From: a virus
Lineage: Duplodnaviria > Heunggongvirae > Uroviricota > Caudoviricetes
Length of the DNA stretch: 64,000 bases
IMG/VR virus record: IMGVR_UViG_3300035034_002381
Location: 1 to 64,000 of that record
Reading direction: 5' to 3' (one strand)
A program made the position numbers and the translations under genes. Positions 22,865 through 45,468 of this stretch are shown here, piece by piece. Each line of letters starts with the position of its first letter. The stretch's first letter is position 1. The notes beneath the pieces were generated by a model. The model did not search any database and had not been told where the DNA came from. It saw nothing but the letters and a program-made list of their open reading frames with translations.

Positions 22865-22869
22865 ATGTT

Positions 22870-25806: not shown

Positions 25807-26081
25807 TGAAAAAGGCAAGAACATTTACAGAATTTAATGAGTCTATATCAAACGAAGAAGAACTAAATGAAGCAGTCGATGTATTTATCGCAATTGCTGA
25901 AGCTTTAGACGTAAGTTTAGATGTCGCAAAAATGATAGTAGCTTTGGCAGGAGTCACCGGAACAGTAACTTTCGCAGCAGCAATGACAAAAATCCAAGAT
26001 GTATTGGCAAAGAAAAATCCTAAATTATCTAAGAAATTAGGTGATATTACAAAAGGAGCAAATAACGCGAGAACACAATAG
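25806..26081 (+). CDS. CTS-leader small protein (MKKARTFTEFNES)
   Basis: 91-aa ORF with a hydrophobic central segment. Confidence 0.6.
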   Translation: MKKARTFTEFNESISNEEELNEAVDVFIAIAEALDVSLDVAKMIVALAGVTGTVTFAAAMTKIQDVLAKKNPKLSKKLGDITKGANNARTQ

Positions 26082-26085
26082 AAAT

Positions 26086-26505
26086 ATGGATGATATTAGC
26101 AATGGAGGTGGAATTCTCCAAAAAACAAAGATACTTACAGTAACAAATAAGATTGGTTATGCCAAGAATTCTGAGGGTGTGACTTCTGTATTTGCTAATA
26201 CTGATATTGGAGCAGGCGATCTTATCGAGGTTGCGACCCTTCTAGAAGTTTCAGATATGGTGATGACAAATAGAGAAATTGCTGATCATGTTTTTACAGT
26301 AAATCCAGAAAGTAAACAATATGCGATCGGTTTAGGATTTGCTTGTTTATATCAACATAACGATAAACCTAACGCCGAGTGGAATATACCTAGCGATAAA
26401 AAGGAAATCAGATTTACTGCTAAAGACGACATAAAAAAATCTGAAGAAATCACAATTTCATACGGAAAGAATTATTTCCTAAGTAGAGAAAAGAAAGAGG
26501 AATAA
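26086..26505 (+). CDS. SET-domain protein (putative protein lysine methyltransferase)
   Basis: FACLYQHNDKPNAEW resembles the NHSxxPN motif and EEITISYGKNYF the ELtxdYg motif; start moved to the ATG at 26086 because the track start at 26041 is GTG and overlaps the previous gene. Confidence 0.55.
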   Translation: MDDISNGGGILQKTKILTVTNKIGYAKNSEGVTSVFANTDIGAGDLIEVATLLEVSDMVMTNREIADHVFTVNPESKQYAIGLGFACLYQHNDKPNAEWNIPSDKKEIRFTAKDDIKKSEEITISYGKNYFLSREKKEE

Positions 26506-26562: not shown

Positions 26563-26973
26563 ATGAAAGCCTTTACTTATGTTATAGATATTGATGACAC
26601 TATCAATATTACCGATAGAGATGAAAATAATATAGGACTGTATTCTCAGTCTCGGCCGATACTTAAAGTTATCAATAAAATTCGAAGACTTAAAAAAGAA
26701 GGCCACAAAATCATACTTTTTACTGCTAGAGGTATGCGTACATTTAATAATGATGTCAAAAAAATCGAAGATTTTCATAGAGAAACACTCGTTAAATGGT
26801 TAAATGACCATGAAGTCCCTTATGACGAACTACAGTTCGGTAAACCATGGGGCCCCCATGTAATATATGTCGATGATCGTGCTGTTACTATTAACCAATT
26901 TGTTTTGGGTGGTCCCGAAAATCACAGAAGTTATACACACATTAACAAAACAGTTATAAATGATGAATTATAA
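26563..26973 (+). CDS. HAD-superfamily phosphatase
   Basis: motif I VIDIDDTI, motif II ILFTARG, motif III/IV K...YVDDR. Confidence 0.65.
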   Translation: MKAFTYVIDIDDTINITDRDENNIGLYSQSRPILKVINKIRRLKKEGHKIILFTARGMRTFNNDVKKIEDFHRETLVKWLNDHEVPYDELQFGKPWGPHVIYVDDRAVTINQFVLGGPENHRSYTHINKTVINDEL

Positions 26974-28660
26974 AGTAATTATTCCCGCGGCAGGGAAGGC
27001 ATCAAGACTCAAGCCTTTATCTTCTTCAATGTCAAAATCAATGGTGCCAGTAAATGGTAAACCAATAATTTCATATATTCTTGATCAACTGTTTGAACTA
27101 GGAAATCCATTTCAAATAGTTATTGTTGAAAATGAGCTCGGTGATATTCAAGATTTTGTTAAAAACGCATATCCAAATTATTATGAAGAATCCCGTATTC
27201 TTTTTGCAACTCAAAAAGAAAGGTTAGGTCCTTTGCATGCTATTGAAATTGGTGCAAATAGGTTTCCGGAAAATGATAACATGCCAATTATGGTTTGGCT
27301 CGGAGATACAATCTGTTTGGAAATGGGTGAGTTGCCAGTTAATGAATCTTTATTAATTACATCGCCTGTCGCCGATTATAAAAGATGGTGTTTAGTAGAT
27401 AACGAGAATGTCTTCTATGATAAACCAGATAACAAACCAAGCACTAACCAAGCTTTAATAGGTATATATTATTTCCATGATTTTAAGGCCTTCTACGAGG
27501 CCCTAGATAAGGGAATGCAAGCTCCTATGATTAAAGATGAACATCAAATATCGGCTTTATTAGAAGCATATAAAAAACAACATATATTCAAAATCAGAAA
27601 AACTGATGAATGGTTTGATTGTGGTGAGTTACATACATTTTATGAATCTAAAGCAAGACTTCTTGGAAGATCTGCCAGGTCATTTAATAGTCTAGAAGTA
27701 AATACATTCCATAACACAATTACTAAATCTTCATTAACATTCGAAGGTAAACTGAAAATTGAGAATGAAAAAAATTGGTATTTAGGTTTACCTGAGAATA
27801 TTCAGATTCTCACACCTAGAGTATTAAAATCAAATTCAGGTACGCTAGTTATGTCGCAAGAACCTGGAACACCTCTTAATGAAATGTGGCTTTATGAGGA
27901 TTTGACTGATGATACATGGAAAAGAATAATTGATAAAACGTTACTTATACACAATAAAATTTTCTATCAATCTAGATATATTCCTAAATCTTCTAAATTA
28001 GATAGATTTGCTGCAAGAAAGGAAATGTATCTGACTAAAAATATTGACAGATTGACAGAAATTTCATTCCTGCCTTTTGCACAGAAAAATATAAAAATGA
28101 TTCGAGATTTTGTGCGGGTTACTGGTGAATTATTAATTGAAGATGAAGGTCGTTGGTCGCCACATTTTCATGGAGATTCTCACATGGGTAATATTTTATT
28201 TGAACCTTTACAGGGAAGTATGAAATTTTTGGATCCACGTGGAAAGTTTGGAAATATCGTAGGCATTGAGGGCGATATGTATTATGATATGGCTAAAATT
28301 GCGCAAGATTTTCTTTTACGCTATCCTGAAATTTTATCTGGTCATTATCATTTTAGTGGAGATAATTTTGACCAGCTTGAATTTTATAGAAATGACGAGA
28401 GATCTAAAACTATGCTAAAACATTTCAGAAAAAGAATTGGTGAATATGGTTATATTCCTAATCTTGTTTTAATGTTAGCAACTGTGCTTATCATAACTTG
28501 TATACCTTTTCATAAAGACGATCCAGAAAGACAAAAAGCATTTTGGTATATGGCAGTAAATGTTATTAAAGAAAGAGGGTGGAATATCCAACTCGAAGAT
28601 CATCTCAAAAAACAAAAATTACAATTATCAGACAAGATACATAATCTATACAACTTATAA
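26960..28660 (+). CDS. bifunctional nucleotidylyltransferase (N-terminal) / APH-fold small-molecule kinase (C-terminal): LicC-LicA-like or MurU-AmgK-like
   Basis: N-terminal IIPAAGKASRLKPLS...KSMVPVNGKPII is an NTP-transferase signature; C-terminal HGDSHMGN (H-x-D-x4-N), FLDPRG and GDMYYDMAKI resemble choline/aminoglycoside kinase motifs. Confidence 0.65.
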   Translation: MMNYKVIIPAAGKASRLKPLSSSMSKSMVPVNGKPIISYILDQLFELGNPFQIVIVENELGDIQDFVKNAYPNYYEESRILFATQKERLGPLHAIEIGANRFPENDNMPIMVWLGDTICLEMGELPVNESLLITSPVADYKRWCLVDNENVFYDKPDNKPSTNQALIGIYYFHDFKAFYEALDKGMQAPMIKDEHQISALLEAYKKQHIFKIRKTDEWFDCGELHTFYESKARLLGRSARSFNSLEVNTFHNTITKSSLTFEGKLKIENEKNWYLGLPENIQILTPRVLKSNSGTLVMSQEPGTPLNEMWLYEDLTDDTWKRIIDKTLLIHNKIFYQSRYIPKSSKLDRFAARKEMYLTKNIDRLTEISFLPFAQKNIKMIRDFVRVTGELLIEDEGRWSPHFHGDSHMGNILFEPLQGSMKFLDPRGKFGNIVGIEGDMYYDMAKIAQDFLLRYPEILSGHYHFSGDNFDQLEFYRNDERSKTMLKHFRKRIGEYGYIPNLVLMLATVLIITCIPFHKDDPERQKAFWYMAVNVIKERGWNIQLEDHLKKQKLQLSDKIHNLYNL

Positions 28661-28949: not shown

Positions 28950-29134
28950 TTTTTAAAGTAAGAGTAGAAGAAAAGAGCATAGAAGATGTTATAGAACTTA
29001 TTGAAACAGGAGAAGGGAAAAAAGGTCTCCAATTTGATCTATATAATGAAAAACCATATTTTTCACATGTAGAAATTTTCGTTAATACTGATGATTTCTA
29101 CACATTAAAGGATTATTTAAATGAACAAACCTAA
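28946..29134 (+). CDS. small hypothetical protein
   Basis: 62-aa ORF, ATGA overlap. Confidence 0.5.
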   Translation: MIFKVRVEEKSIEDVIELIETGEGKKGLQFDLYNEKPYFSHVEIFVNTDDFYTLKDYLNEQT

Positions 29135-31064
29135 GACTATATGTCTTGTTATGATTGTAAAAAATGAGGCAAAAAATTTACCTCGTTGTTTTTCTACGAT
29201 CAAACATATTATTGATTATTGGGTAATTGTTGATACTGGTTCAACTGATAACACACAGGAAGTTATACAGAAAGAGTTAGCCGATATTCCTGGTGTATTA
29301 ATGGAAAGACCGTGGGTCAATTTTGGTCATAATAGATCCGAATCTTTGGCTTTTGCTAAAAACAGAGCAGATTATCTTTTGCTTTGTGATGCTGATGAAC
29401 AAATTATACCTACACACAATTTTGACAAATCTGAGTTGACTCTTGATCAATATCATTTAAGATATAATGGGAGCTTAGATTATATGGTTCCTTATCTTAT
29501 TAAGTCTAATTTGGCTTGGAGATTTGTAGGAGTTACCCATGAATTTTTGACAGCAAGTGACACAAAATCTTCAGGTGAGATTAAAAGCCTTTCAATTAAA
29601 GATTGGGGAGATGGTGGAGCAAAATCTGATAAATTTGAAAGAGACATTAAATTGCTCGAACAAGGTTTGATTGATGAACCGAAGAATGTTAGGTATATGT
29701 TTTATCTAGCAAATTCTTATAAGAATACTAAGGATTTTGATAACGCAATCAAATGGTATAAAAAACGTATCGATGCAGGGGGTTGGATAGAAGAAGTTAC
29801 ATGTTCATATGAATATATGGGAGGATGTTATCAGCAGAAAAATGACCACGGGAATGCGATTAAAACATGGATAGATGGTTATGAATTTAATCCTTCTCGT
29901 GCTGAGTGTTTATATGAGGCAGGTAAATTACTTCGTGAAGAAAATAAGAATAGAATAGCTTACGAATTTTTACAAAAGGCTAAAGAAATTCCATATCCTA
30001 CTAACGATAGATTATTTATCAAAAGAGATGTTTATGAATATTTGATAGATTATGAACTGACTATTTGTGCATATTATGTTAAACCAGAATATGATATGAC
30101 CGAGACATTTAAAAGGCTAATCTTTTGGCCAAGTCATTTACAACAAAACATTATACAAAATTTTAAGTTTTGGGCTAAAGATTTGAATACACTTATAGGT
30201 CAAGAGGAAAGTATGATCTTGGCTAAAGATTTGATTAGTAATGATTTGGTTGAGGGTTTTACACCTAGTTCCCCATCAATTCTTTTTCATAAAAATCGCA
30301 AGTACATAAATGTGCGCCAAGTATCATATAAAATTGACGAAAATGGTAAGTATTTAGATCGTGCAAGTGGAGGTCATTGTAAACATGTGAATACAATTAA
30401 CACAATGTATTGGACTGATGGACCCTCATATGACACGGAAAATTTTAAACCCAATGATATTTCTACTAAACATGTGAATGGTATTGAAGATCTAAAACTA
30501 TATACACACAATGGAGTAATCAAATACACTGGGACAAAATGGTTGGATTATAACAAAATTTCTATAGTTATTGGTGAGTATACTAAAGAAGGTCTAGATA
30601 ATTATGCTATTCTAGAGTCTCCAGAAGGAAGGAATGTTGAAAAAAATTGGGTACCGTTTGGATTAGATAATGAAGAACTTTTTGTATATGATTGGAATCC
30701 AATAAAAATTGGAAGAATCAAAAATAATAAACTAGTAATCAAAAATTTAAAAACTAGTTTTCCTAACTTGCGTGGATCAGCTCCTGGTAAACTTATTGGA
30801 GATCATATCTATTTTTTATGTCATTTTGTAGAATATTCTACACCAAGAATTTACTATCATATCTTCATTAAAATGCATAAAGATAATTGGGAAAAAATCG
30901 AGATTTCTAAACCGTTTGTTTTTGAAAAACCACAAATAGAATATTCAGTAGGATTTGATTATAATATTAAGACTGATGATATACATATTGCATATAGTGT
31001 AAATGATTCGAATGCAAGAATCAAATCTTATTCACAAACACAATTTCAAAAACTTTTTACTTAA
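29121..31064 (+). CDS. GT2-family glycosyltransferase with TPR region and large C-terminal domain
   Basis: ICLVMIVKNEAKNLPRC...VIVDTGSTDNT...LLLCDADE is the GT2 (SpsA-like) pattern; TPR-like YMFYLANSYKNTKDFDNAIKWYKKRI. Confidence 0.65.
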   Translation: MNKPKTICLVMIVKNEAKNLPRCFSTIKHIIDYWVIVDTGSTDNTQEVIQKELADIPGVLMERPWVNFGHNRSESLAFAKNRADYLLLCDADEQIIPTHNFDKSELTLDQYHLRYNGSLDYMVPYLIKSNLAWRFVGVTHEFLTASDTKSSGEIKSLSIKDWGDGGAKSDKFERDIKLLEQGLIDEPKNVRYMFYLANSYKNTKDFDNAIKWYKKRIDAGGWIEEVTCSYEYMGGCYQQKNDHGNAIKTWIDGYEFNPSRAECLYEAGKLLREENKNRIAYEFLQKAKEIPYPTNDRLFIKRDVYEYLIDYELTICAYYVKPEYDMTETFKRLIFWPSHLQQNIIQNFKFWAKDLNTLIGQEESMILAKDLISNDLVEGFTPSSPSILFHKNRKYINVRQVSYKIDENGKYLDRASGGHCKHVNTINTMYWTDGPSYDTENFKPNDISTKHVNGIEDLKLYTHNGVIKYTGTKWLDYNKISIVIGEYTKEGLDNYAILESPEGRNVEKNWVPFGLDNEELFVYDWNPIKIGRIKNNKLVIKNLKTSFPNLRGSAPGKLIGDHIYFLCHFVEYSTPRIYYHIFIKMHKDNWEKIEISKPFVFEKPQIEYSVGFDYNIKTDDIHIAYSVNDSNARIKSYSQTQFQKLFT

Positions 31065-32362
31065 TGTACATTATAAAAAACAATAAACTTGAATCTACTG
31101 ATAATATCGATTTATTTTTTAATGAGATAAATGTTGGACAACATATTGCTAAATATGGATATTTCGAAAGTGACCTTATTAATTGGTTAAAGCTTACATA
31201 TAAAAATAATGATAAAATCTTTTTAGATTTAGGAGCGCACATAGGTTCATATTCAATAGAATTAGCAGAAAATTTTCATTCAGTTCATTCATTTGAACCT
31301 AATCCAACAGTCTATAATCATTTATGTGCTAATGTTGCATTAAAGAGATTATCAAATAGGGTATTTCCACACAGAGTTGCATTATCGGATAATAAATCTA
31401 AACAGCCATATTATGAGAGATCCAAAGATGGTGGAGGTAATGGAATTGAAGTTGTAAGAGAGAACGATAAGCACTCATTCTTTGTAGAATCTAAATGTTT
31501 AGATGATTATTCTTTCGATAAAGAAATCGGTTTGATTAAAATTGATATCGAAGGTCATGAGTATAAAGCTATTTTGGGTGCATATGAAACTTTGAAAAAC
31601 TCATATTTCCCACCTATAATTTTCGAATCTTGGGCGCAAAATACACACCCAGAATATTCACAAGAAATACTTTTAGAAATTCGTGATAAAACATTTGATG
31701 TATTAAAGGATTATGGATACACTGTTAAATCCATAAGTGGATATAATGAAATGTTTATTGCTGTTCAAGAGCGTGAAAAATCTCAAGAAGATATTATTGT
31801 TGAAGGTCTTTTGACAGATAAGTTAGACGTATGGCTTAACTCACCTGGAGGGACTCGAAGCAATTATATAGCCGATGTTCTAGAAAAAAGTAATTTAAGA
31901 GTGAGAAACGAATCCTGGTATAAGTATGGTTGTCATTGGACTTCTCCTTTATTTGAAAGGGAATTTAAAACTACAAGATTGTTTTGCTACACTAGCGATA
32001 TCGGACTCGCATTGACAAGTCAGTTAAATGCCAATACTATTGATAAACTGAATTTTGCAGATTTTTATAATGAACCATGGGATTTATATCGATGGATACA
32101 AAATATTAAAAAACAAGTGATTAACTGGTCGGATCCTGGCGTATTCTTTTTAAATACCGACTATTTAAATGATAAAGATATTCAGTCTGAATTTAAAACT
32201 CTTACTGGAGATAGTTTAGACATATCAGATTTCAGACTTGACCGTAAATCTAAAAAATTACATCCTGCATTAATACAATACATGGATGAGATTAATGAGA
32301 TTAATGAGTTATTAGCAAAATTACCTAATGCCGGTTTTGGCGGAGAAGTTGATGAAGGTTAA
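31064..32362 (+). CDS. FkbM-family methyltransferase with extra C-terminal domain
   Basis: DLGAHIGSYSIELAE...VHSFEPNPTVYNHLCANV...KIDIEGHE. Confidence 0.6.
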   Translation: MYIIKNNKLESTDNIDLFFNEINVGQHIAKYGYFESDLINWLKLTYKNNDKIFLDLGAHIGSYSIELAENFHSVHSFEPNPTVYNHLCANVALKRLSNRVFPHRVALSDNKSKQPYYERSKDGGGNGIEVVRENDKHSFFVESKCLDDYSFDKEIGLIKIDIEGHEYKAILGAYETLKNSYFPPIIFESWAQNTHPEYSQEILLEIRDKTFDVLKDYGYTVKSISGYNEMFIAVQEREKSQEDIIVEGLLTDKLDVWLNSPGGTRSNYIADVLEKSNLRVRNESWYKYGCHWTSPLFEREFKTTRLFCYTSDIGLALTSQLNANTIDKLNFADFYNEPWDLYRWIQNIKKQVINWSDPGVFFLNTDYLNDKDIQSEFKTLTGDSLDISDFRLDRKSKKLHPALIQYMDEINEINELLAKLPNAGFGGEVDEG

Positions 32363-32366
32363 AAAT

Positions 32367-32580
32367 ATGAAATTAGAAATTGATTTTAGTTTGAGCGATT
32401 TAAAAAATAATTGGAAACCAAAAATTAAGATTTGGTTATCATGGGAGTACTAAAGGTGATAAGATAGAATTTGAAATGTATTTTGATGAATATCACAGTG
32501 AATGGACTTCTTTTAAAGATAAAGCGTTTAAAGGATTTGTTCTTAAAAAAATAGATAGAATATTAGACGAAAATTGTTAA
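32367..32580 (+). pseudogene. frame-split small gene
   Basis: MKLEIDFSLSDLKNNWKPKIKI... stops at 32451-32453 while another frame continues GYHGSTKGDKIEFEMYFDEYHSEW... to 32580; the junction lies in an A-rich run. Confidence 0.3.
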
Positions 32581-32621
32581 AAGTCAAATATTTTGATTAT
32601 ATTTATCCTAAATTAATAACA

Positions 32622-32741
32622 ATGGAATATAAATATAATGAGCTGGAAAAACTTCTTATTCTTATGGGTAAAAAATATCCAAATGACCATGATCTTGGCA
32701 ATCAAGCGCGTAAACTTATTCAAAAGATCAAAGAAAAATAA
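32622..32741 (+). CDS. small hypothetical protein (possibly frame-split, continuing to 32817)
   Basis: 39-aa ORF after ttttgattatattta; another frame continues KFNPIADWRPLTEEELKSNLFKPPF and ends in a TAATG junction with 32817. Confidence 0.35.
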   Translation: MEYKYNELEKLLILMGKKYPNDHDLGNQARKLIQKIKEK

Positions 32742-32816
32742 ATTCAATCCAATAGCTGATTGGAGGCCGTTAACTGAGGAAGAATTAAAGTCAAATCTTT
32801 TTAAACCACCCTTTTA

Positions 32817-33455
32817 ATGAACATATTTGTTCTTGACGAAAATGTCAAAAAATGTGCCGAATATCATTGTGATAAACATGTTGTCAAAATGATTACTGAG
32901 CATAATCAAATTTTGGGTTCGATTTCTTATTTACGTAGAGGTATTTCTAAAAAATCGGAAATAACTGATGAATTTATTCAACAACATTTCCAAAATTTTC
33001 CTAGAAAAAAATTAGCAATTGATATGGATTCATTACCCATTGCTGATCATTCGCCACTTATCAAAAAATTATGGAATTTTGTAAAACCCGCAGAATTGTC
33101 TTGGCCGTACGGTATTGGTTATAAAAATCATCCATGTACACAATGGGCTAATGCGTCTAAAGAAAATTATGATTGGCTATGCTCACTCAATCTTGAATTG
33201 TGTAAAGAATATACTAAACGATATAATCGTCGACATGCTGGTGAGGATATTACTCAATGGTATATTGAAAACGCACCATATCTACCGAATTCTGGCATGA
33301 CTCCATTTGTTTTAGCTATGCCTGATGATTGTAAATCTGATGATCCAGTTGAATCTTATCGAATTTACTACATTTATCATAAATATAAATTTGCCAAATG
33401 GAAAACAAAAGTTCCAAATTGGTATATAAACGTTATAAAACATCAAGAAATATGA
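32817..33455 (+). CDS. conserved hypothetical protein (N-terminus MNIFVLDENVKKCAEYHCDKHVVKM)
   Basis: 212-aa ORF; the N-terminal block looks like a widespread phage and giant-virus family whose function I cannot name. Confidence 0.7.
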   Translation: MNIFVLDENVKKCAEYHCDKHVVKMITEHNQILGSISYLRRGISKKSEITDEFIQQHFQNFPRKKLAIDMDSLPIADHSPLIKKLWNFVKPAELSWPYGIGYKNHPCTQWANASKENYDWLCSLNLELCKEYTKRYNRRHAGEDITQWYIENAPYLPNSGMTPFVLAMPDDCKSDDPVESYRIYYIYHKYKFAKWKTKVPNWYINVIKHQEI

Positions 33456-37790: not shown

Positions 37791-39107
37791 ATGAAAAGAT
37801 CTGGTATTAAAGTAGCGGTATTTCCCATGGGTTCAATTATCCGATTTAGGAAAGATGGAATCAAAAGATCGTTTGGTCGTTTAGAATATTATAATTTGAT
37901 TTGGGCGTTGGCCAGAAATCCAAGTATTTCGGAAATTTGGCTTTTACAAGTTTCTGATTGGGAACAATTGACTGATGATGAAAAAATTGATTTTGATCCT
38001 AGAAAAGTTATTCGTAACATTTATGCGGAATTTAAAGTAGACAAACCTAATAGTAAAAAACAAGAATCTTACGCTGATCTTTGGAACAAAATTTCTCATC
38101 TTAAGCAACCTGATTTTGCAATTGTATTTTCTACACAAGGTCTTACTAGAATTTCTATACCAAATATTATACCTAAAGTAAAAAATCCTGAAGAAAAAGC
38201 TAAATGTTTAGAAATGACAATACGCTATTGTTCTTCACAAATGTATTATCTAAACAATTCAGAAATTCCATATTTTTTGGTAGTTAATGATGGCAGATTT
38301 TTGTATACTAATACACATACAAAATATCTGGATATGTTTAATTTACCCAAAGAAATCATGGGATTTTACAAAAATGATGATTATATACTTCATCATTATG
38401 ATAAAATGCCGGATGATGGTGGCAAAATGACTACTGATGTTGTTAAGTTATCATACAGTAAAATGATTTGGCTTAATAATATCAGTGAAAAAATCATAGA
38501 CCCTGCCAACATAGAGAAAACTGAAAAGTTTTCTATTGTAGCTATGCAGGCAGCTTATGGTAAAGATAAACATGATCCTAGATATTCTATTCTAAAGGAG
38601 TGGTTTTTAGACGTAGATGGAAATGAAGATGTTTCGATTTATGGTAAATGGGGAGAATCTTATGTTAAAGATTATCAACATTTTAAAGGCTTAAAGCCAC
38701 ATACTGAAATTGATGAAATTTTCAAGAAAACTAGGTACACATTATTGATTCCAACAGAACCTTTATGGGTAACTACGAAAATATGTGAGATGTTGAAATT
38801 GGGTGTTGTCCCGTTTTTGCATCCTAGTTATGATGAAAAAAATCTATCATTTGGAGAGGATTCATTTTTTAGAGTAAAAAATCCGGAAGATTTAAAAAAG
38901 AAGATTTCATTTTTAGAAAAAAATCCAGATAAAAGAATCAAGCTCATACAAAAGGCTCAAGAAAAATATATGGAAGGTGTCACAAACGGAACTTGTGTCG
39001 TCGACGCAATTAATCCATATCTTCAACGGGCTAATATTGATGTAGAATTGCAACATGGATTTAGTGATGAACTAATTCGTAAGCGCAAAGTTAAAAAATT
39101 ATTTTAA
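37791..39107 (+). CDS. GT-B-like glycosyltransferase, possibly T4 beta-glucosyltransferase-like (tentative)
   Basis: 438 aa; C-terminal layout FSIVAMQAAYGKDKHDPRY...YTLLIPTEPLWVTTKICEMLKLGVVPFL...FFRVKNPEDLKKKISFLEKNP resembles the T4 BGT C-terminal half from memory. Confidence 0.4.
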   Translation: MKRSGIKVAVFPMGSIIRFRKDGIKRSFGRLEYYNLIWALARNPSISEIWLLQVSDWEQLTDDEKIDFDPRKVIRNIYAEFKVDKPNSKKQESYADLWNKISHLKQPDFAIVFSTQGLTRISIPNIIPKVKNPEEKAKCLEMTIRYCSSQMYYLNNSEIPYFLVVNDGRFLYTNTHTKYLDMFNLPKEIMGFYKNDDYILHHYDKMPDDGGKMTTDVVKLSYSKMIWLNNISEKIIDPANIEKTEKFSIVAMQAAYGKDKHDPRYSILKEWFLDVDGNEDVSIYGKWGESYVKDYQHFKGLKPHTEIDEIFKKTRYTLLIPTEPLWVTTKICEMLKLGVVPFLHPSYDEKNLSFGEDSFFRVKNPEDLKKKISFLEKNPDKRIKLIQKAQEKYMEGVTNGTCVVDAINPYLQRANIDVELQHGFSDELIRKRKVKKLF

Positions 39108-39110: not shown

Positions 39111-40319
39111 ATGAAGAATAAATTTTCTAAGGATGGACATTGGAGATTCGGTACTATAGTTCCATTAATCGGGGGAATGACCATATCCAACCAACAAGCA
39201 ACCGGAGATAATCCGGACTTTTTAATATCTTATCCAGCGTTTGCAGGCAATGATTCTCATTGTGTTAATCATTTTAAAGATACCCCATATTATGTAGTCG
39301 ACCCAGAAACTAATGAATTACCTGAAGACGATACTTTTCAAAATGTAGATTTTGTGTCTGCAGTGTGCCCATGTGCAGGACTTTCTATGTTAAATACTTC
39401 TAAGAAAAGAGGATCTGATGCAGAAATGAATAATTGGATGTATAAATCTGCAGAATTAGTTTTAGAACAAATTAAACCCAAAGTTTTTTGGGGGGAGAAT
39501 GCACCAGGTCTATATACAAAATCTGGTGAAGGTGTAGTCAAAAAATTGAGAGAAATTGCTGAAAAGAATGGTTATGTACTTTCATTAGTCAAAACTAATA
39601 CCTTTTTACATGGTATACCACAACATAGAACTAGAACTTTTTACTTTTTTTGGCAAGGTAAACATGCGCCAATACTGAATTATACCGAGCGGGATGCACC
39701 AACTCTTAAAGAATATCTAGATCAAATTCCTGAAAATGCTTCTATGCAAGATGAAAAATTCGGCTTAGAAAGTATGAATAGTCTTTGGTTTAAATTCTTA
39801 AAAGATCAAAACATAAAAATTTCAGATGTACAAAAAAGTACGTGTAAATCAATTATGGATTATTGTGTAGCCGAAAAATTGATGCCGAAAATGGTTGATT
39901 GGGGTGAAGAAAATGGATATGATAAAATGGTCAGGACTGCTAAGCATATTCTACATAAACAATCTATGGGTAAAGGTTGGTGGGACGCTACACCATTAGT
40001 ACCAACAGATACTATTAATGCGCTGATTAGTAAGAATGCTGGAATTGTCCACCCGAACGGAGAAAGACCAATTAATACCCGAGAAGCTTTATGGTTAATG
40101 GGATTACCACATGATTTTACTATGGTCGATTATGACAATAGAAAAAATAGCAATCACATTTGCCAAAACGTACCGGTAACCACTGCAAAAGACTGGACAT
40201 TCGAAGTGATGAAATTTATCAATAAAGATATTGAAAAAATTGCAACGCCGTTTCTAAAACAAAACAATATCAAACAAAGAATAGATTTACAAGAAAATAA
40301 ATCCAAAGCACTTTTTTAA
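39111..40319 (+). CDS. DNA (cytosine-5) methyltransferase-family enzyme
   Basis: motif IV AVCPCAGLS, motif VI FWGENAPGL, motif VIII GIPQHRTRTFYF. Confidence 0.75.
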   Translation: MKNKFSKDGHWRFGTIVPLIGGMTISNQQATGDNPDFLISYPAFAGNDSHCVNHFKDTPYYVVDPETNELPEDDTFQNVDFVSAVCPCAGLSMLNTSKKRGSDAEMNNWMYKSAELVLEQIKPKVFWGENAPGLYTKSGEGVVKKLREIAEKNGYVLSLVKTNTFLHGIPQHRTRTFYFFWQGKHAPILNYTERDAPTLKEYLDQIPENASMQDEKFGLESMNSLWFKFLKDQNIKISDVQKSTCKSIMDYCVAEKLMPKMVDWGEENGYDKMVRTAKHILHKQSMGKGWWDATPLVPTDTINALISKNAGIVHPNGERPINTREALWLMGLPHDFTMVDYDNRKNSNHICQNVPVTTAKDWTFEVMKFINKDIEKIATPFLKQNNIKQRIDLQENKSKALF

Positions 40320-40321: not shown

Positions 40322-41761
40322 ATGAAACCTTTATTTGTAATAGAAGACGAAATACAAAATAAGTCTAATATATTCGAACTAATTAATCCACAAAAATTAG
40401 ATCCGAATAAAAAGACTATATTAATAATCACATACAAAAATTTTGCTGGTGATTTTGACTATATTTATGGATTTAATCACAAGATTATTGAATTATTAAA
40501 AGATCAATATAATATTGTATTTGCTGGAAAGGAAATTAAAAAGAATGTCATCGATATAGATAATTTCTATTTAATTGATATGAAAGGTTATACGAGTTTA
40601 AATCAGAATAGATTTAAGCGCAAAAAAGAAGATCCTAACAGTAACCAAATTAACAGAAATATTTTATGGGAAGAATTTGAATCTGCGTTCGGTGATTTAG
40701 AAATTGATTTAATTTTTTATGCGACACCAGAGTATGCGATTTTACCTCATGGTAAATCTTATCATAAAGATTTCAAAGAAATACAAAACGAAATTCATGA
40801 TTATGTAGGCGCAGATACTAAAAAGATTCAGCGTATTAACGAAATTATGTACGATATCTATGAAAATTATGATACCCATGCATCTATTTTAATGTTTTCT
40901 GCCTGGCATAAAAATGTCATGATGAACTTGCCGGTTTTTCTAAAAGAAAGAAATTCGTTTAAAGTCATTGCATTTTCTATTGATCCTGCAAATACTTATC
41001 GATATTTGGAACACCATGGAATAGAATGTACCAATTTTTATTTTGAAGAAGATAAACGTGGTACTCGCAATTTCGAAAAATTTCCAATAGCACATCTTCA
41101 ACATTTAATTTTTGAAAACAACGAAAATCCTACAGAAAAATATAGTTTAGAAAAAACTACAGATTTTTTCTTTATGGGAACGATTATTCAAGAAAAGGGA
41201 AGTAGAATGCAGATGTGGTATGAATTTTTATCAGATTTAAAATTAGACGATAAATCTAATTTTTGGATCCCAATTAAACATAATGGAATTTACCGAACTA
41301 AAAAACAAGAAACTAGTGGTCATACCAAAAAGGGTTTACAGATTATTGATGAAAAATTCACAGACATTAAAAATGCTATCATAAATCATCCCAATTTTTC
41401 TGGACATTTATTACCATCAGAAGTCAAAAAACATATTGTAGCTTATAAATATTCATTAGTATTGCGATGTGTTTCTATTTATGATAGTCTAAATTTTAGA
41501 CCTATTTATTATGTTTATTTAAACATTCTTCCATTTTTAGATCATATGTATGATCCAGATTATTTACAGATTCCTAAGAAATTTCAAGACAAATTAGCAG
41601 TATCTAATTCACGAGATATCGAGGATAGAATCAAATATTATAATCAAAATCCAAAAGAAAGAATTCAGTTATTAAAAGAAATGAGAGAGTTTTTTGAAAT
41701 AGACGAGTTTTTAGAAGATTGGAAAAACATAACACTAAAACATATAGATCATGCTAAATAA
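40322..41761 (+). CDS. paralogous GT-B-like glycosyltransferase (tentative)
   Basis: 479 aa; FFFMGTIIQEKGSR...KYSLVLRCVSIYDSLNFRPIYYVYLNILPFL...AVSNSRDIEDRIKYYNQNP has the same layout as 37791. Confidence 0.35.
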   Translation: MKPLFVIEDEIQNKSNIFELINPQKLDPNKKTILIITYKNFAGDFDYIYGFNHKIIELLKDQYNIVFAGKEIKKNVIDIDNFYLIDMKGYTSLNQNRFKRKKEDPNSNQINRNILWEEFESAFGDLEIDLIFYATPEYAILPHGKSYHKDFKEIQNEIHDYVGADTKKIQRINEIMYDIYENYDTHASILMFSAWHKNVMMNLPVFLKERNSFKVIAFSIDPANTYRYLEHHGIECTNFYFEEDKRGTRNFEKFPIAHLQHLIFENNENPTEKYSLEKTTDFFFMGTIIQEKGSRMQMWYEFLSDLKLDDKSNFWIPIKHNGIYRTKKQETSGHTKKGLQIIDEKFTDIKNAIINHPNFSGHLLPSEVKKHIVAYKYSLVLRCVSIYDSLNFRPIYYVYLNILPFLDHMYDPDYLQIPKKFQDKLAVSNSRDIEDRIKYYNQNPKERIQLLKEMREFFEIDEFLEDWKNITLKHIDHAK

Positions 41762-42398
41762 GATATTTAAAAGTTTGAGTAATTCTGAAAATGAAGCATT
41801 ATGTGTACAAAGAACTAATCTTTTATTCGAAGCATTAGATATTATAGAAAAACATAATGGGAAAGCTTGGTTAGATTGTGGTACTTTGTTAGGTGCGTAT
41901 AGAGATGGTGAATATATTCCATGGGACGTCGATGTAGATTTAGGAATTAATATCGAGGATGTTACTGAGGAAATGCTAAATGATTTCAGAGATAAATATA
42001 ATATACGACACGATAATGGAAACTTAGATCAATACAAATTTTGCTCATTTTATAAGAGAGATGAAAATGGTGATAATTACAAATTTAGAAGATGTAATTT
42101 ATGGATTGATTTACATATGTACTATCCAAATTATGATGGTACAAGAACTATGACAATTACTACAGGAAAAATTAGAGCACCTAAAAAAATCTTTCCAGCA
42201 CCTGCTGAATGTATCGAGAATTTAGAACAAATTGAATGGCAAGGTAGAAAAGTAAATATTCCTAGTAAAACTGTAAAATATTTAGAACAATGGTATGGAT
42301 ATGATTGGGACGTACCTAACGATAAATGGAAAATGTCTCCGAGTTGGTACGATAATCCAACAAATGACAAAATTATTCAAGGTAAAACCCTCTTTTAA
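41751..42398 (+). CDS. LicD-family phosphotransferase (phosphocholine/phospho-alditol transferase family)
   Basis: KAWLDCGTLLGAYRDGEYIPWDVDVDLGI matches the LicD signature W.d.GTLLGa.R...IPWDdD.D. Confidence 0.75.
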   Translation: MLNKIFKSLSNSENEALCVQRTNLLFEALDIIEKHNGKAWLDCGTLLGAYRDGEYIPWDVDVDLGINIEDVTEEMLNDFRDKYNIRHDNGNLDQYKFCSFYKRDENGDNYKFRRCNLWIDLHMYYPNYDGTRTMTITTGKIRAPKKIFPAPAECIENLEQIEWQGRKVNIPSKTVKYLEQWYGYDWDVPNDKWKMSPSWYDNPTNDKIIQGKTLF

Positions 42399-42416: not shown

Positions 42417-43178
42417 ATGCATATATTAAATGAATATTTTGACAAGATTTATATTACCAACCTCGACTCGGCCAAAGATAGATATGAAAGATTATCTAAA
42501 GAACTGGATTCATTTGGCGTTGTTTATGAAAGATTCAAAGCATTGACTCCAGATGATGCAAGAAAGGTATTTGCTGAAAAAGGCCTAAAGATTCCTAAAA
42601 GTAATAGTGGAGCTCTTGGTTGCGCAACTTCACATTATATATGCTGTCAACAGGCTGCGAAAAATGGACTTAAAAGAATTTTGATTCTTGAAGATGATGC
42701 AAGAATAACCGATATAGATTTTAATCAAGAGACTCAAAATTTAGTTGAACAAATAAGAAAAACCGACTGGTTTTATCTAAAGCTTGGTTATAATATCACT
42801 AACCAGATGTTAGACGAAAATTTTGAGTTTCATAGAGTTTCAGAAAATTTGTTTAATCTTTCAAAAAGTTCTATGACCACCGCTATAGCTTTCAATATCG
42901 AAAAAATCGTAGAGGATGAGAATGCTTCCACAGTTTTTATTTCTGATCACGCATTAGAAAATAGTAAATTGAATATTCATATTGACCATAGATTGTTTAT
43001 GATGTGTAACGAATTCGGAATTCTACAATGCCATTATTATCCAGCAATATTTACTCAGACTGATGGGTATTCATACATAGGAAAAGAAGAAAGGAAATTC
43101 TCTAATATTGATAAAAGAACAAACAGAATATTCAAAGAGCATATACAATCTTCTAGCTCAACAAAAAAATTATTTTAA
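42417..43178 (+). CDS. glycosyltransferase family 25 (LgtB/Lic2B-like)
   Basis: FDKIYITNLDSAKDRYERL..., GALGCATSHY and ILILEDDARI. Confidence 0.65.
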   Translation: MHILNEYFDKIYITNLDSAKDRYERLSKELDSFGVVYERFKALTPDDARKVFAEKGLKIPKSNSGALGCATSHYICCQQAAKNGLKRILILEDDARITDIDFNQETQNLVEQIRKTDWFYLKLGYNITNQMLDENFEFHRVSENLFNLSKSSMTTAIAFNIEKIVEDENASTVFISDHALENSKLNIHIDHRLFMMCNEFGILQCHYYPAIFTQTDGYSYIGKEERKFSNIDKRTNRIFKEHIQSSSSTKKLF

Positions 43179-43196: not shown

Positions 43197-43976
43197 ATGG
43201 AATTTTTAAATATACTACAATCGGAATTACAATCGGGATTTATTTACATACCTAATAGAGGCAATGCTGGGGATGTTGTCATTCAACAATCTACTATTAA
43301 ATTTTTTGAAAAAAATAATCTAAACTTCGAATTAGGAAAAAACACTACAACTTATGTTGGGGAAAATCTAGTTTATGGTGGGGGTGGAAATTTGATTGGA
43401 AAATACCAACCGGCTAAAAAATTCATAAAATTAAATGCGGAAAAAAATCATATAATGATATTACCGCATACAATTAAGAACAGCGAAAAGTCTTTAAATA
43501 TGCTGAATAAGGATTCTATTGTTTTTTGCAGAGAAAGAATATCTCATGAATATGTTAGTAAATTTATTGAAAAATGTTATTTACATAAAGATATGGCTTT
43601 TCATCTAGATTTAGAATCTTATAAAAAGGAATCTAAATATGAAGTAGGAAATATATTTAGAATGGATGTCGAATCTTCTAATAACGTTAAAAAAATTCCA
43701 TCTAATAATGTGGATATATCCAGTGTTTTTAATCGTAGAAATCAGCATACAAATTTAGAAGTAGCTCAAGCTGTATTTGATGATTTTGTTAATTATATAG
43801 CAGATTTCGAAATTGTAAACACAGATAGATTACATATTGCAATTATTGCTGCAATATTGGGAAAAAATGTTAATCTTTATCCTAACTCATATTATAAAAA
43901 TAAAGCCGTATATGACTATACATTATCGTTAGAATATCCCAACGTCAATTTTATCGATGAAGTAAAATATAGATGA
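43197..43976 (+). CDS. polysaccharide pyruvyl transferase family protein
   Basis: PNRGNAGDVVIQ, VYGGGGNL and NTDRLHIAIIAAILGKNV. Confidence 0.6.
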   Translation: MEFLNILQSELQSGFIYIPNRGNAGDVVIQQSTIKFFEKNNLNFELGKNTTTYVGENLVYGGGGNLIGKYQPAKKFIKLNAEKNHIMILPHTIKNSEKSLNMLNKDSIVFCRERISHEYVSKFIEKCYLHKDMAFHLDLESYKKESKYEVGNIFRMDVESSNNVKKIPSNNVDISSVFNRRNQHTNLEVAQAVFDDFVNYIADFEIVNTDRLHIAIIAAILGKNVNLYPNSYYKNKAVYDYTLSLEYPNVNFIDEVKYR

Positions 43977-44030: not shown

Positions 44031-44603
44031 ATGAAAACAATTATTATTGAAGGATGTGATAGAGTAGGAAAAGATACAGTTTGTAATGGAATAAAACTGA
44101 CTGCGGACTGTTTACTTTATCGACATTGGCTTAAACCTAAAGGTCAAACTAATGATGAAAGAGTTAATTATCAAAAGACAACATTTAAAAAGGAATTTGA
44201 TTTACGTAAATCTTTTTTGGATGATTGGTATCTTAATGATAATGATAAAAATTCTGATTTAATTCTTTGGAACAGAAGTCATATTGGAGAATATGTTTAT
44301 GGAAAACTATATCGAGACTATGATCCAAATTGGATTTATAATCTGGAAAATCTTTATAATTTTTCTGATAATAACATTTATTTGGTAATGTTATATGCAG
44401 ATCCAGATTTTTTGTGTGAGAATGATGATGGACATTCATTCAGTTCTGATATTGAAGGTAAAACGCAAGAAATCAATTTATTCCACGAAGCAGTGGATAA
44501 AAGTCTAATACCAAATAAAATAAAAATAAAAGTAAATGACGGAAAACGTTACCGAGACAGAAAAGAAATTAGAAAAGAAATTTTTGATCGAATCTTCAAT
44601 TAA
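44031..44603 (+). CDS. deoxynucleoside monophosphate kinase (T4 gp1-like)
   Basis: IIIEGCDRVGKDT resembles T4 gp1 FLSGVKRSGKDT; 190 aa; directly upstream of the hydroxymethylase. Confidence 0.6.
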   Translation: MKTIIIEGCDRVGKDTVCNGIKLTADCLLYRHWLKPKGQTNDERVNYQKTTFKKEFDLRKSFLDDWYLNDNDKNSDLILWNRSHIGEYVYGKLYRDYDPNWIYNLENLYNFSDNNIYLVMLYADPDFLCENDDGHSFSSDIEGKTQEINLFHEAVDKSLIPNKIKIKVNDGKRYRDRKEIRKEIFDRIFN

Positions 44604-45468
44604 TCAAAGATTCCAAGAACTTATTGAGCAGATTGAGATATCTGCAGAAATGAATGGTACAGTTAATCCACGAGATTTACTGGTTAAAGAATCACTACTT
44701 ACAGGATTTTCTATTGATCCAAGATATCCATGTATAGATTTCGAAGCAAGAAAATTCAACTATAAATATTTTGCTGCTGAGGTTGCATGGTATTTATTAA
44801 AAGATAATACAACAGAATTTATTTCTAAGTTTTCCAATTTCTGGAATAATATTACAAATCCAGATGGAACTATTAATTCTAATTATGGAAAAATTCTATT
44901 AACACAAATAAACAATACTATCACACCAATAGCATGGGTAGTAAATTCTTTAAGAAAAGATAAAAATTCTAGACAAGCAATTGCATATATTGGAAGTAAG
45001 GATTTTCAATATGAAGGAAATAAAGATTTTGTGTGTACTCAATATATTTTGTTTTTTATTCGAAACGATGAACTTCATATGAAAGTTCAAATGAGATCAA
45101 ACGATATTTTTTATGGATTATCTTATGATGCTCCTTGGTTTTCGTTAGTTCATCAAAATACATTTCTTGAACTAAAAGAATTATATCCAGAATTAAAAAT
45201 TGGAAAGTATTTTCATTTTTCTGATAACTCACATTTTTATCAAAGACATTTTAGTAAAGCTCAAGAAGTCTTACAAGAAGAGGTTAAGCTTGGTCCTAAA
45301 ATTGTTCTTGAGAAACCTTTATGGAGAACTTATGAAAATGGTAATTGCGTTATTACTGAAACGGCTAGTAATTATATAGATTTTTTCAATAAAAATTTAG
45401 GTGATTTATCCGAGTATAAAAACGAACAATTTAAAGAAGTTCTCAAAAAAATCGTAAAAATTAACTAA
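44536..45468 (+). CDS. deoxycytidylate hydroxymethylase (T4 gp42-like; thymidylate synthase superfamily)
   Basis: GTINSNYG, NSRQAIAYI, DFVCTQYILFFIRN (catalytic Cys), MRSNDIFYGLSYDAPW (Asp where ThyA has Asn) and NSHFYQRHF parallel T4 gp42 blocks; start uncertain (68-nt overlap; alternative ATG at 44650). Confidence 0.75.
   Translation: MTENVTETEKKLEKKFLIESSINQRFQELIEQIEISAEMNGTVNPRDLLVKESLLTGFSIDPRYPCIDFEARKFNYKYFAAEVAWYLLKDNTTEFISKFSNFWNNITNPDGTINSNYGKILLTQINNTITPIAWVVNSLRKDKNSRQAIAYIGSKDFQYEGNKDFVCTQYILFFIRNDELHMKVQMRSNDIFYGLSYDAPWFSLVHQNTFLELKELYPELKIGKYFHFSDNSHFYQRHFSKAQEVLQEEVKLGPKIVLEKPLWRTYENGNCVITETASNYIDFFNKNLGDLSEYKNEQFKEVLKKIVKIN

Follow-up and report, generated by a model that had tools for sequence, protein, structure and literature searches.

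The window analysed here is a stretch of 64,000 nucleotides (positions 1 to 64,000) of the IMG/VR virus record IMGVR_UViG_3300035034_002381, classified in the Caudoviricetes, and our subject is a pair of adjacent genes at 29121-32362 together with the glycan genes that surround them. The first gene of the pair codes for a protein in which a GT2 glycosyltransferase domain is followed by tetratricopeptide-type (TPR) helical repeats and a beta-propeller, and the second for a methyltransferase of the FkbM family. An earlier note on this DNA had reported the open reading frames 29121-31064, 31064-32362, 42417-43178 and 43197-43976, all on the + strand, and a set of family motifs in their products (DTGSTD and CDADE; DLGAHIGSY and SFEPNP; GCATSHY and ILEDDA; GNAGD, GGGGNL and DRLHIAI). 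All four reading frames are there, every one of the motifs is found in the translations, and the assignments to the GT2, FkbM, LicD, GT25 and pyruvyl transferase families are backed by Pfam matches well above chance; the TPR match is weak in Pfam. The same note had counted at least eight glycan-building genes in about 17 kb. We count nine between 26.5 and 44.0 kb, which code for a HAD phosphatase, a nucleotidyltransferase/kinase, the GT2-TPR protein, the FkbM protein, a GT-B-like protein, a second GT-B-like protein (40322-41761), LicD, GT25 and a pyruvyl transferase, and we agree that these enzymes exceed the needs of T4-type DNA glucosylation. Homologues were sought in phage records, IMG/VR, metagenome contigs, cellular genomes and BFVD. 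The two genes and their domains are as follows.

29121-31064, + strand: tri-domain protein of 647 residues, GT2-TPR-GH130-fold
29121..29615, + strand: GT2 (GT-A fold) catalytic domain, about residues 1-165, with DTGSTD at residues 38-43 and a DxD-type motif, D90-A-D92
29616..30200, + strand: TPR/helical-repeat domain, about residues 166-360 (weak Pfam TPR_8/TPR_2)
30213..31064, + strand: five-bladed beta-propeller of GH130/GT108 fold, residues 365-647 (283 residues), all-beta in the AlphaFold2 model
31064-32362, + strand: FkbM protein of 432 residues
31064..31768, + strand: FkbM-type S-adenosylmethionine-dependent methyltransferase domain, residues 1-235, motif DLGAHIGSY
31769..32362, + strand: rare C-terminal domain of the FkbM protein, residues 236-432, alpha/beta, with a strand, Gly-rich loop and helix (W.NS.GG.RSN) and the motifs GCH and DIG.A.TSQ

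The AlphaFold2 model of the 647-residue protein, built on 64 homologues, is confident, with a predicted local distance difference test (pLDDT) of 93.7 and a predicted template modelling score (pTM) of 0.87. The GT2 domain matches Glycos_transf_2 (PF00535) over residues 9-97 at 3.7e-11 (43.7 bits against a cut-off of 23.3), and D38, D43, D90 and D92 are invariant in the alignment of the 64 homologues. For the GT2 domain and the helical repeats taken together (residues 1 to about 360), the best fold matches in the PDB are to SunS/ThuS, with Foldseek E-values from 4e-16 to 5e-15; the entries 7msn and 7msk are matched at about 1e-15 over about 370 aligned columns. At the sequence level, phmmer matched the glycosyltransferase domain of GmaR, the Listeria flagellin O-GlcNAc transferase, at 9e-9. 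The top NCBIfam match is the SunS family TIGR04195 (2.2e-10), with 40 bits against a cut-off of 350 and over residues 6-94 only, which leaves the protein outside that family. Helices occupy residues 171-359 of the model and are matched by Foldseek to consensus-TPR (CTPR) proteins and to the TPR domain of OGT, and consensus-TPR chains in the PDB match this region by sequence as well, down to 6.7e-17.

The earlier note had described an extra domain of 400 residues in this protein. There is such an extra region, but it is really the TPR region and the 283-residue all-beta domain, of which the GH130 fold had gone unrecognised. Foldseek matches the propeller to 7fip_B, a beta-1,2-mannobiose phosphorylase, with an E-value of 2.6e-9 and a template modelling score of 0.63 on the target, and further fold matches are to TM1225, mannosyl-chitobiose phosphorylase, and Leishmania MPT-4 and MPT-2, the latter a GDP-mannose mannosyltransferase (PDB entries 1vkd, 6q50, 6q4x, 4udg and 5ayd). 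As judged from the model, the domain has the GH130/GT108 fold. A profile of the propeller run against the PDB sequences found no GH130 chain and returned only spurious matches to BCL7A. The residues that are invariant in the propeller include G454, D457, E507-K508-N509-W510, R551, H568 and R576, which suggests a predicted active site that binds a phosphate-bearing sugar donor.

The product of the second gene matches Methyltransf_21/FkbM (PF05050) at 1.3e-15 (58.4 bits, cut-off 22.7), TIGR01444 at 2.4e-23 (83.2 bits, cut-off 37.7) and phrog_8156 at 4e-27, and its AlphaFold2 model (pLDDT 90.7) yields fold matches to Rossmann methyltransferases. An FkbM gene lies directly 3' of the tri-domain gene in three phage lineages, represented by contigs L009, L040 and L184/L185, with gaps of 1-18 bp. 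L009 is a close relative; in L184/L185 the gap is 1 bp and the two proteins are 47% and 40% identical to those of the window, and in L040, a phage-like contig, the gap is 18 bp with 36% and 37% identity. In a further contig, L051, the FkbM gene is at most 6.5 kb from the tri-domain gene. The GT2-TPR-GH130 gene and the FkbM gene are a conserved two-gene cassette.

While the FkbM gene does code for a methyltransferase, as the earlier note had stated, its unannotated C-terminal domain (residues 236-432) had been overlooked. The FkbM proteins of L009, L040, L184/L185 and L051 have about 245 residues against 432 in the window, and the extra 197 residues are fused to FkbM only in the proteins P0122 and P0123 besides that of the window. 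Elsewhere the domain occurs as about 30 stand-alone proteins of about 200 residues among 1.84 billion representatives. Its alignment contains an invariant Ser, Gly-Gly and His. No match to the domain was found among Pfam or PDB sequences, and the fold search with the whole FkbM protein returned Rossmann methyltransferases only. One of 22 members of the C-terminal-domain family matches Sulfotransfer_1 (9e-5), the domain of the window protein itself being without such a match, and the layout of strand, Gly-rich loop and helix is compatible with a sulfotransferase. The domain may be sulfotransferase-like, a lead from one weak match to a member of the family and not an assignment.

The tri-domain protein belongs to a large family. 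More than 5000 homologues were found, mostly of about 650 residues. A scan of IMG/VR gave 585 confirmed matches, and gene context was counted in the best 80 of these 585 (loci L012-L091). All 80 are near full-length, with 32-37% identity, and many are giant-virus contigs from metagenome-assembled genomes (GVMAG). In the giant-virus loci the gene lies in a conserved block with the major capsid protein of nucleocytoplasmic large DNA viruses, RNase HII, an RFC-like ATPase and another GT2. A thymidylate-synthase homologue was found within 10 kb in none of the 80 loci. According to BFVD, many phages and giant viruses encode the GT2-TPR module; TPR segments are in addition fused to FkbM in proteins of uncultured Caudovirales phages, and giant viruses have fusions of TPR with LicD and with a WcaK-like pyruvyl transferase. 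Among cellular genomes the two-domain form, GT2-TPR, is common in Bacillus, Streptomyces, Mycobacterium, Chlamydiae and Proteobacteria, and the three-domain form occurs in a few metagenome-assembled genomes of Chlamydiae, Actinomycetota and Chloroflexia. One bacterial two-domain homologue, 56% identical to the N-terminal half of the window protein, is located near hldE, msbA and cydAB.

A separate observation concerns the giant-virus neighbourhood of the gene. Downstream of the tri-domain gene and on the same strand, 39 of the 80 IMG/VR loci encode a protein of about 620 residues, at a median distance of 1.2 kb (for example L065 13277-15151 and L067 13693-15891). A representative has a hydrophobic N-terminal segment, and Ser, Thr and Gly together make up about 30% of the family's residues. 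It is possible that this neighbour is a substrate for O-glycosylation.

The cassette is interleaved with genes for DNA modification, which are spread over the region on both sides of it.

26563..26973, + strand: HAD-IIIA phosphatase, equivalent of AfhF / DLP3 gp81 (TIGR01689 3e-28; phrog_1238)
26960..28660, + strand: sugar-1-phosphate nucleotidyltransferase (N-terminal) and APH-like kinase (C-terminal, HGDSHMGN), equivalent of AfhE / RB69 gp52:53 (NTP_transferase 6e-17)
37791..39107, + strand: GT-B-like glycosyltransferase (Glyco_trans_1_2 2.7e-6)
39111..40319, + strand: C5-cytosine DNA methyltransferase-like protein (PF00145 8.5e-24)
44031..44603, + strand: thymidylate-kinase-like nucleotide kinase (weak Pfam Thymidylate_kin), parallel to RB69 gp45 and DLP3 gp78
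44536..45468, + strand: thymidylate-synthase homologue, predicted deoxycytidine monophosphate (dCMP) hydroxymethylase of the T4 gp42 type (PF00303 6e-18)

It is well supported that five of these genes, namely those for the HAD phosphatase, the nucleotidyltransferase/kinase, the GT-B-like protein at 37791-39107, the nucleotide kinase and the thymidylate-synthase homologue, constitute a recurrent DNA-hypermodification module. Four genomes or contigs have the set in one piece, namely those of Enterococcus phage 9183, Pseudoalteromonas phage XG4, Agathobaculum phage AB434P2 and the relative L101. In phage 9183 the order is kinase, thymidylate-synthase homologue, dUTPase, HAD, a pyrophosphorylase-like protein of 544 residues and the GT-B homologue, and in XG4 the set comprises the thymidylate synthase, HAD, nucleotidyltransferase/kinase, GT-B and the C5-methyltransferase-like gene. 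The HAD protein is 44-59% identical to the operon HADs of phage 9183, XG4, AB434P2 and L101. The nucleotidyltransferase/kinase is matched in 175 phage records, mostly RB69-like Escherichia phages, and its matches also include those in XG4 (29% identity over 94% of the length) and L101 (53%) and ORF047 of phage 9183. The kinase gene stands directly 5' of the thymidylate-synthase homologue in L001 and L101 (52-53% identity), in phage 9183 and in AB434P2. Homologues of the GT-B-like protein at 37791-39107, a candidate DNA hydroxymethylcytosine glycosyltransferase, adjoin those of the nucleotidyltransferase/kinase, of the thymidylate synthase or of both in XG4, 9183, AB434P2, MT837767, L001, L009 and L101; a metagenome scan with this protein returned only the same phage, at 99-100% identity. 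The C5-methyltransferase-like gene has homologues at the same place in the string of genes in L001 (17393-18691), L101 (14813-16093) and phage XG4 (L092, 5432-6568). Its motifs look near-canonical, with PCAG for PCQ, ENA for ENV, and QHRTR.

The module belongs to an already known kind of system. The arabinosyl-5-hydroxycytosine (Afh) pathway, which has experimental support, is composed of a thymidylate-kinase-like enzyme, the HAD phosphatase AfhF, the bifunctional kinase/nucleotidyltransferase AfhE and GT-B transferases (PMC13326640). No arabinose-5-phosphate isomerase was found in the window. Cytosine-modifying homologues of thymidylate synthase are recognised by the catalytic Cys, by a change of N177 to Asp, which confers specificity for dCMP, and by a change of L143 to Asp or Glu, and the RB69-type enzymes, which carry D169N, make 5-hydroxy-dCMP (PMC13326640). 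The best PDB match of the window's synthase homologue is T4 dCMP hydroxymethylase (1b49, 1.4e-14). In the alignment C167 corresponds to the catalytic Cys of the T4 enzyme (C148), D164 to D145 (L143 in Escherichia coli), D190 to D171 (D169 in E. coli) and D198 to D179 (N177 in E. coli). The protein thus has the Cys, the Asp in place of N177 and the acidic residue in place of L143, and lacks the D169N change. Because Asp is kept at the D169 position, the predicted product is 5-hydroxymethyl-dCMP and not 5-hydroxy-dCMP, and the retained D169 rules out a 5-hydroxy-dCMP synthase of the RB69 type.

We predict that the phage replaces cytosine with 5-hydroxymethylcytosine before replication. The thymidylate-synthase homologue would make 5-hydroxymethyl-dCMP and the adjacent kinase would phosphorylate it; the HAD phosphatase and the kinase/nucleotidyltransferase fusion would make a nucleoside diphosphate (NDP) sugar, and the GT-B-like enzyme at 37791-39107 would move the sugar of this donor onto the hydroxymethyl group in DNA. 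A NUDIX hydrolase is encoded at 48873-49403, about 3.4 kb downstream of the hydroxymethylase homologue, and could take the dCTP-clearing role of T4 gp56, though it is of another fold family.

The relationship between the tri-domain gene and the DNA module varies among the related contigs. L101 has an operon-like, co-directional string of HAD, nucleotidyltransferase/kinase, GT2-TPR, a homologue of 40322-41761, GT-B, C5-methyltransferase, kinase and thymidylate-synthase homologue; in the window the tri-domain gene starts about 460 bp past the nucleotidyltransferase/kinase gene. L001 contains the DNA module and the tri-domain gene and is without FkbM, LicD, GT25 and pyruvyl transferase. L100 and L102 contain the tri-domain gene and no DNA-module genes in their visible flanks. 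In five contigs a homologue of Pyr_excise, a DNA glycosylase like T4 endonuclease V, lies directly 3' of the tri-domain gene or of the GT2-TPR/FkbM pair.

32817-33455 in the window: Pyr_excise homologue
10778-11320 in L001: Pyr_excise homologue
2077-2691 in L009: Pyr_excise homologue
11946-12491 in L100: Pyr_excise homologue
4692-5210 in L102: Pyr_excise homologue

The gene order may simply be inherited, or the adjacency may point to a function connected with DNA. L102, a phage-like contig, also carries an IS605 OrfB/TnpB (Cas12f-like) gene at 340-1539, about 1.2 kb 5' of the tri-domain gene.

Four further glycan genes fill the space between the C5-methyltransferase-like gene and the nucleotide kinase.

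40322..41761, + strand: protein of 479 residues, probably a second GT-B-like transferase (faint Glyco_trans_1_2, 0.096)
41751..42398, + strand: LicD-family phospho-alcohol (phosphocholine or ribitol-phosphate type) transferase (PF04991 9.8e-17, 62.2 bits, cut-off 22.6)
42417..43178, + strand: GT25-family glycosyltransferase of 253 residues (PF01755 1.9e-17, 64.2 bits, cut-off 24)
43197..43976, + strand: polysaccharide pyruvyl transferase of EpsI/WcaK type, 259 residues (PF04230 3.6e-13, 50.5 bits, cut-off 25.3)

The C-terminal half of the 40322-41761 protein is a distant paralogue of the GT-B-like protein at 37791-39107 (5e-5), and homologues with 43-44% identity are present in L009 and L101; the phage database held no match to it. 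LicD also matches the NCBIfam cholinephosphotransferase Mf1, at 4e-20 and below the cut-off. It is less likely that LicD and the nucleotidyltransferase/kinase amount to a full LicA/LicC/LicD phosphocholine pathway, since the latter protein travels with HAD, GT-B and thymidylate synthase in phages without LicD. The matches of GT25 in the phage database are confined to huge phages of 484-735 kb. Against the TAGT family (PF20691) it scores 19.8 bits (8.4e-4) with a cut-off of 27.5, and no dioxygenase domain (TET/5mYOX) was found among the window reading frames scanned, which rules out a DNA glycosyltransferase of the TAGT type. For the pyruvyl transferase 176 homologues were found, the named bacterial ones being EpsI-type exopolysaccharide enzymes, and the IMG/VR scan returned no relatives. 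A phage contig, L096, encodes a pyruvyl transferase that is 75% identical, with GT25 before it and two GT2 genes after it. Giant-virus contigs encode relatives with 41-43% identity, and in one of them (L099) GT25 is two genes away. LicD, GT25 and the pyruvyl transferase are absent from both L001 and L101 and are therefore accessory; FkbM, which L001 lacks despite having the DNA module and the tri-domain gene, is accessory too.

The replicon that carries these genes is a large myovirus-type phage. The window is AT-rich (G+C content about 0.26-0.39) and contains a prohead protease, baseplate-like genes and a capsid gene of the T4 type.

19214-21007: Gp23-type major capsid protein, 40-43% identical to those of Lak megaphages and of a 462-kb uncultured phage

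Two arrays at 229-10979 hold 21 tRNA genes, with three copies for tRNA-Met and duplicates for Tyr, Ile and Arg(tct), a load typical for very large phages. All reading frames of at least 120 residues between 26.9 and 46.7 kb are on the + strand, apart from one of 124 residues within the gene at 35996-37714, and the + strand also holds nearly all larger reading frames across the window. A nucleotide search with 29121-32362 against 50,697 phage records gave zero matches, and L095, a contig from another metagenome, is the same phage (99-100% identity).

Several other features of the region deserve mention. A hairpin resembling an intrinsic terminator (21034-21059, an 11-bp stem and a T-run), the strongest between 21 and 41 kb, is located directly 3' of the capsid gene and is followed by a reading frame of 561 residues (21117-22802) for a nuclease-like protein, MTES_1575/DUF7487, which is downstream of the capsid gene in L001 as well. 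A SET-domain protein resembling protein lysine methyltransferases (26041-26505), with a 38% identical homologue in L001 (7518-7952), is encoded between the capsid and the glycan genes. Two intervals amid the tightly packed genes, 22803-23711 (about 910 bp) and 32363-32816 (about 455 bp), are without a reading frame of at least 60 residues; the equivalent of the second in L009 has a call of 36 residues. A conserved trio at 34123-37714, amid the glycan genes and also present in L009 (2688-6093), codes for a PRPP (phosphoribosyl pyrophosphate)-synthetase-like protein, a P-loop kinase/NT5C fusion and a NAMPT-family protein of 572 residues, and resembles phage pathways that reconstitute NAD+ against NAD-depleting defence.

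The best explanation for the glycan genes at 26.5-45.5 kb is that they form two interleaved systems, one for DNA modification and the other a giant-virus-like glycan toolkit. The earlier note had placed them in a single pool directed at DNA, capsid, fibres or the host surface; the large glycan set is there, but it splits into the DNA module and a conserved cassette whose large member is shared with giant viruses. By analogy with characterised relatives, we tentatively favour the reading that the product of the cassette at 29121-32362 is a short glycan, O-methylated and attached to a protein, probably one of the virion, as the most attractive of several possibilities. The TPR domain would hold the acceptor while the GT2 domain attaches the first sugar to it, and a second sugar, probably in beta linkage, would be added or trimmed by the GH130/GT108-fold propeller by way of a sugar-1-phosphate or an NDP-sugar. 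The FkbM enzyme would then O-methylate the product, to which its C-terminal domain may attach another substituent, possibly sulfate, and further elaboration, of this glycan or of a second one, would fall to LicD, GT25 and the pyruvyl transferase. That a glycan is O-methylated and pyruvylated is plausible from the families to which these enzymes belong. What the data show are the identities and folds of the domains, the conserved cassette, the recurring DNA module and the enzymes shared with giant viruses; which enzyme does what, on which acceptor, in which order and by which chemistry is inferred, and the functions given to these genes are predictions throughout.

A protein acceptor is favoured because the closest characterised relatives of the GT2-TPR half act on peptides or proteins, because giant viruses keep the whole tri-domain enzyme, and because viral glycosyltransferase sets with methyl-, pyruvyl- or sulfotransferases decorate giant-virus fibrils and mycobacteriophage capsids. 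Several observations weigh against this reading. The string of genes in L101 and the spacing of about 460 bp in the window fit a role in a DNA glycan equally well, and the Pyr_excise gene after the cassette in five contigs is to be counted on the same side. The hldE/msbA neighbourhood of the 56% identical bacterial homologue hints at an acceptor of the lipopolysaccharide type. TPR domains can bind polysaccharides too, no Ser/Thr-rich (mucin-like) reading frame that could serve as a substrate was found in the window, and the acceptor could differ in the giant-virus orthologues, which are only 33-37% identical. Residues 361-647 found no match in Pfam, including Glyco_hydro_130, at E-values up to 5, and the GH130 assignment is one of fold only. 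The sequence gives no signal on the timing of expression: the T4-type late-promoter motif TATAAATA has 14 matches against 13.6 expected, and counts in a scan for sigma-70 promoters are at chance, the terminator past the capsid gene being the only useful signal.

The main rival view is that all of these enzymes act on DNA, the GT-B sugar on 5-hydroxymethylcytosine being extended by the 40322-41761 protein, GT2, the GH130-like domain and GT25 and then capped with a methyl group by FkbM, a pyruvyl ketal by the pyruvyl transferase and a phospho-alcohol by LicD, which would give a complex hypermodification that blocks nucleases. The arrangement of the genes speaks for it: glycan and DNA-module genes are interleaved from 26.5 to 45.5 kb, L101 has the tri-domain gene and the 40322-41761 homologue between the nucleotidyltransferase/kinase and GT-B in one co-directional string, and LicD, GT25 and the pyruvyl transferase are inserted right between this string and the kinase/thymidylate-synthase pair. 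DNA modifications with di- and trisaccharides made by several phage glycosyltransferases are also documented. We nevertheless find this view rather unlikely. In giant viruses, where both are common, and in bacteria, the tri-domain protein and the GT25-pyruvyl transferase pair have no genes of the DNA module in their vicinity, and L001 lacks FkbM, LicD, GT25 and the pyruvyl transferase although it has the DNA module and the tri-domain gene. The closest characterised relatives of the tri-domain protein are peptide and protein enzymes, and GT25 is not a DNA glycosyltransferase of the TAGT type. Trisaccharides are the longest DNA-linked glycans in the literature examined, and a survey of DNA glycosyltransferases mentions no TPR, tetratricopeptide, SunS, pyruvyl, LicD or GT25. 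Giant viruses are not known to glycosylate DNA, and the presence of the tri-domain protein in them, with its likeness to protein and peptide glycosyltransferases, argues against a DNA-specific role, though not conclusively. It is improbable in our view that the nine genes build one elaborate product, a 5-hydroxymethylcytosine-linked oligosaccharide of at least three sugars that is O-methylated, pyruvylated and phospho-substituted, with the tri-domain enzyme recruited to DNA-borne sugars; if this were true, giant viruses with the same enzyme might glycosylate DNA too.

The cassette could also act, with LicD, GT25 and the pyruvyl transferase, on a glycoconjugate of the host envelope, such as the core of lipopolysaccharide or lipooligosaccharide, a capsule or teichoic-acid-like polymers, and remodel it for superinfection exclusion or masking. 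Two-domain GT2-TPR homologues are widespread in bacteria, including the one near hldE and msbA, and the classical roles of LicD, GT25 and EpsI-type pyruvyl transferases lie in the making of surface polysaccharides, the named bacterial homologues being exopolysaccharide genes. Homologues in the phage database are annotated as lipooligosaccharide beta-1,4-glucosyltransferase, the HAD protein matches a capsule-biosynthesis phosphatase family, and the large glycosyltransferase sets of cyanomyoviruses, in which a TPR protein and a GH130-type MGP gene are included, have been explained as serving such remodelling of the cell wall. The hints that come from annotation are, however, names only. The window showed no gene for a flippase, a polymerase, a lipid-carrier transferase or export, Pfam detects no membrane-anchoring domain in any of the enzymes (no prediction was aimed at membrane helices), and the giant viruses that carry the same tri-domain enzyme infect eukaryotes and have no bacterial envelope to modify. 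We regard envelope remodelling as unlikely. The propeller, for its part, might be catabolic and, as a phosphorylase or hydrolase, feed GT2 with sugar-1-phosphate by recycling or trimming glycans of the beta-mannoside type, or it might be a carbohydrate-binding module only, and the product of the cassette would then be a modification at the level of a monosaccharide. Most of the solved GH130 members that it matches (7fip, 1vkd, 4udg and 5ayd) are indeed phosphorylases or predicted glycosidases, with only the Leishmania MPT-2 type a transferase. The propeller is, however, fused to a transferase and has stayed intact in phages and giant viruses alike, and its invariant residues (Asp, Lys, Arg and His) are ones that a pure binding module would not need; we consider these proposals improbable.

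Three points reach beyond this phage. The GT2-TPR-GH130-fold fusion is a large uncharacterised family of viral enzymes, with thousands of matches in metagenomes, whose members come from huge phages, from giant viruses that infect eukaryotes and from a few bacteria, and its acceptor, once identified, would assign a function across the whole family. One replicon with a DNA-sugar pathway of the T4/RB69 type beside a giant-virus-like toolkit may decorate two targets, DNA and virion, and is a suitable case in which to ask whether large phages do both, a matter of relevance to adsorption, to immune recognition and to the evasion of restriction. The HAD and kinase/nucleotidyltransferase pair, which was described for the arabinosylation of 5-hydroxycytosine, is here combined with a hydroxymethylase-type synthase; it is also present in phages of Enterococcus, Pseudoalteromonas and Agathobaculum. 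Earlier work has already described big myoviruses with large sets of glycan genes, DNA-sugar pathways made of such parts and GH130-like propellers in giant viruses. Apparently undescribed in the literature examined are the tri-domain fusion as a family that huge phages share with giant viruses, its conserved linkage to FkbM, the rare C-terminal domain of the FkbM protein and the combination of the Afh-type sugar-activation pair with a hydroxymethylase-type synthase.

Among known systems, the DNA module has the same parts list as the Afh pathways of RB69, DLP3 and HY126 and the glucosyl-5-hydroxymethylcytosine pathway of T4. It differs from the Afh pathways in its synthase, which keeps Asp at the D169 position and is by the published diagnostic a hydroxymethylase like T4 gp42 (PMC13326640), in the spread of its genes over 19 kb, interleaved with other glycan genes, and in the C5-methyltransferase-like gene within its conserved string. 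The tri-domain enzyme resembles SunS/ThuS and GmaR in having an N-terminal GT-A/GT2 domain followed by TPR-like helical repeats, which in those enzymes are thought to hold the peptide or protein substrate. The window protein is, however, only about 16% identical to them, no precursor-peptide or flagellin gene was recognised near its gene, and its C-terminus is formed by a GH130-fold propeller; in GmaR this place is taken by a linker and antirepressor domain that are all-helical, and SunS ends soon after the repeats. The propeller shares the five-bladed architecture with the GH130 beta-mannoside phosphorylases and the Leishmania MPT enzymes (GT108, GDP-mannose-dependent beta-1,2-mannosyltransferase/phosphorylases), and its invariant acidic residue and several invariant basic residues would suit a site for sugar-1-phosphate or NDP-sugar. 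It differs in being the C-terminal domain of a glycosyltransferase, while the known propellers stand alone, and in having no detectable similarity to Pfam or PDB sequences. Uncharacterised GH130-like propellers have been reported in amoeba giant viruses in a 2026 preprint.

As a gene set, the toolkit has parallels in several groups of viruses. The marine cyanomyoviruses P-SSM2, S-SCSM1 and S-SCSM2R are T4-like and have many glycosyltransferases, including GT2 and GT25, and they also encode NDP-sugar enzymes, a TPR protein and a protein of GH130 type; as described, these domains are on separate proteins, and their descriptions report no link to a hydroxymethylase module. Among mycobacteriophages with virion glycosylation (Corndog/Che8 type), those of Cluster O have three glycosyltransferases and an O-methyltransferase that modify capsid and tail-tube proteins. 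The capsid and fibril clusters of giant viruses (R132-L143 in Mimivirus, and those of Megavirus and Moumouvirus) combine several glycosyltransferases, a pyruvyl transferase and one or more sugar methyltransferases, with a sulfotransferase in one clade. The likeness to the giant-virus and mycobacteriophage clusters was seen at the level of the gene set, and the tri-domain architecture is not among the enzymes described in the literature examined. The nearest relatives outside phages of both the tri-domain enzyme and the pyruvyl transferase of the window are found on giant-virus contigs.

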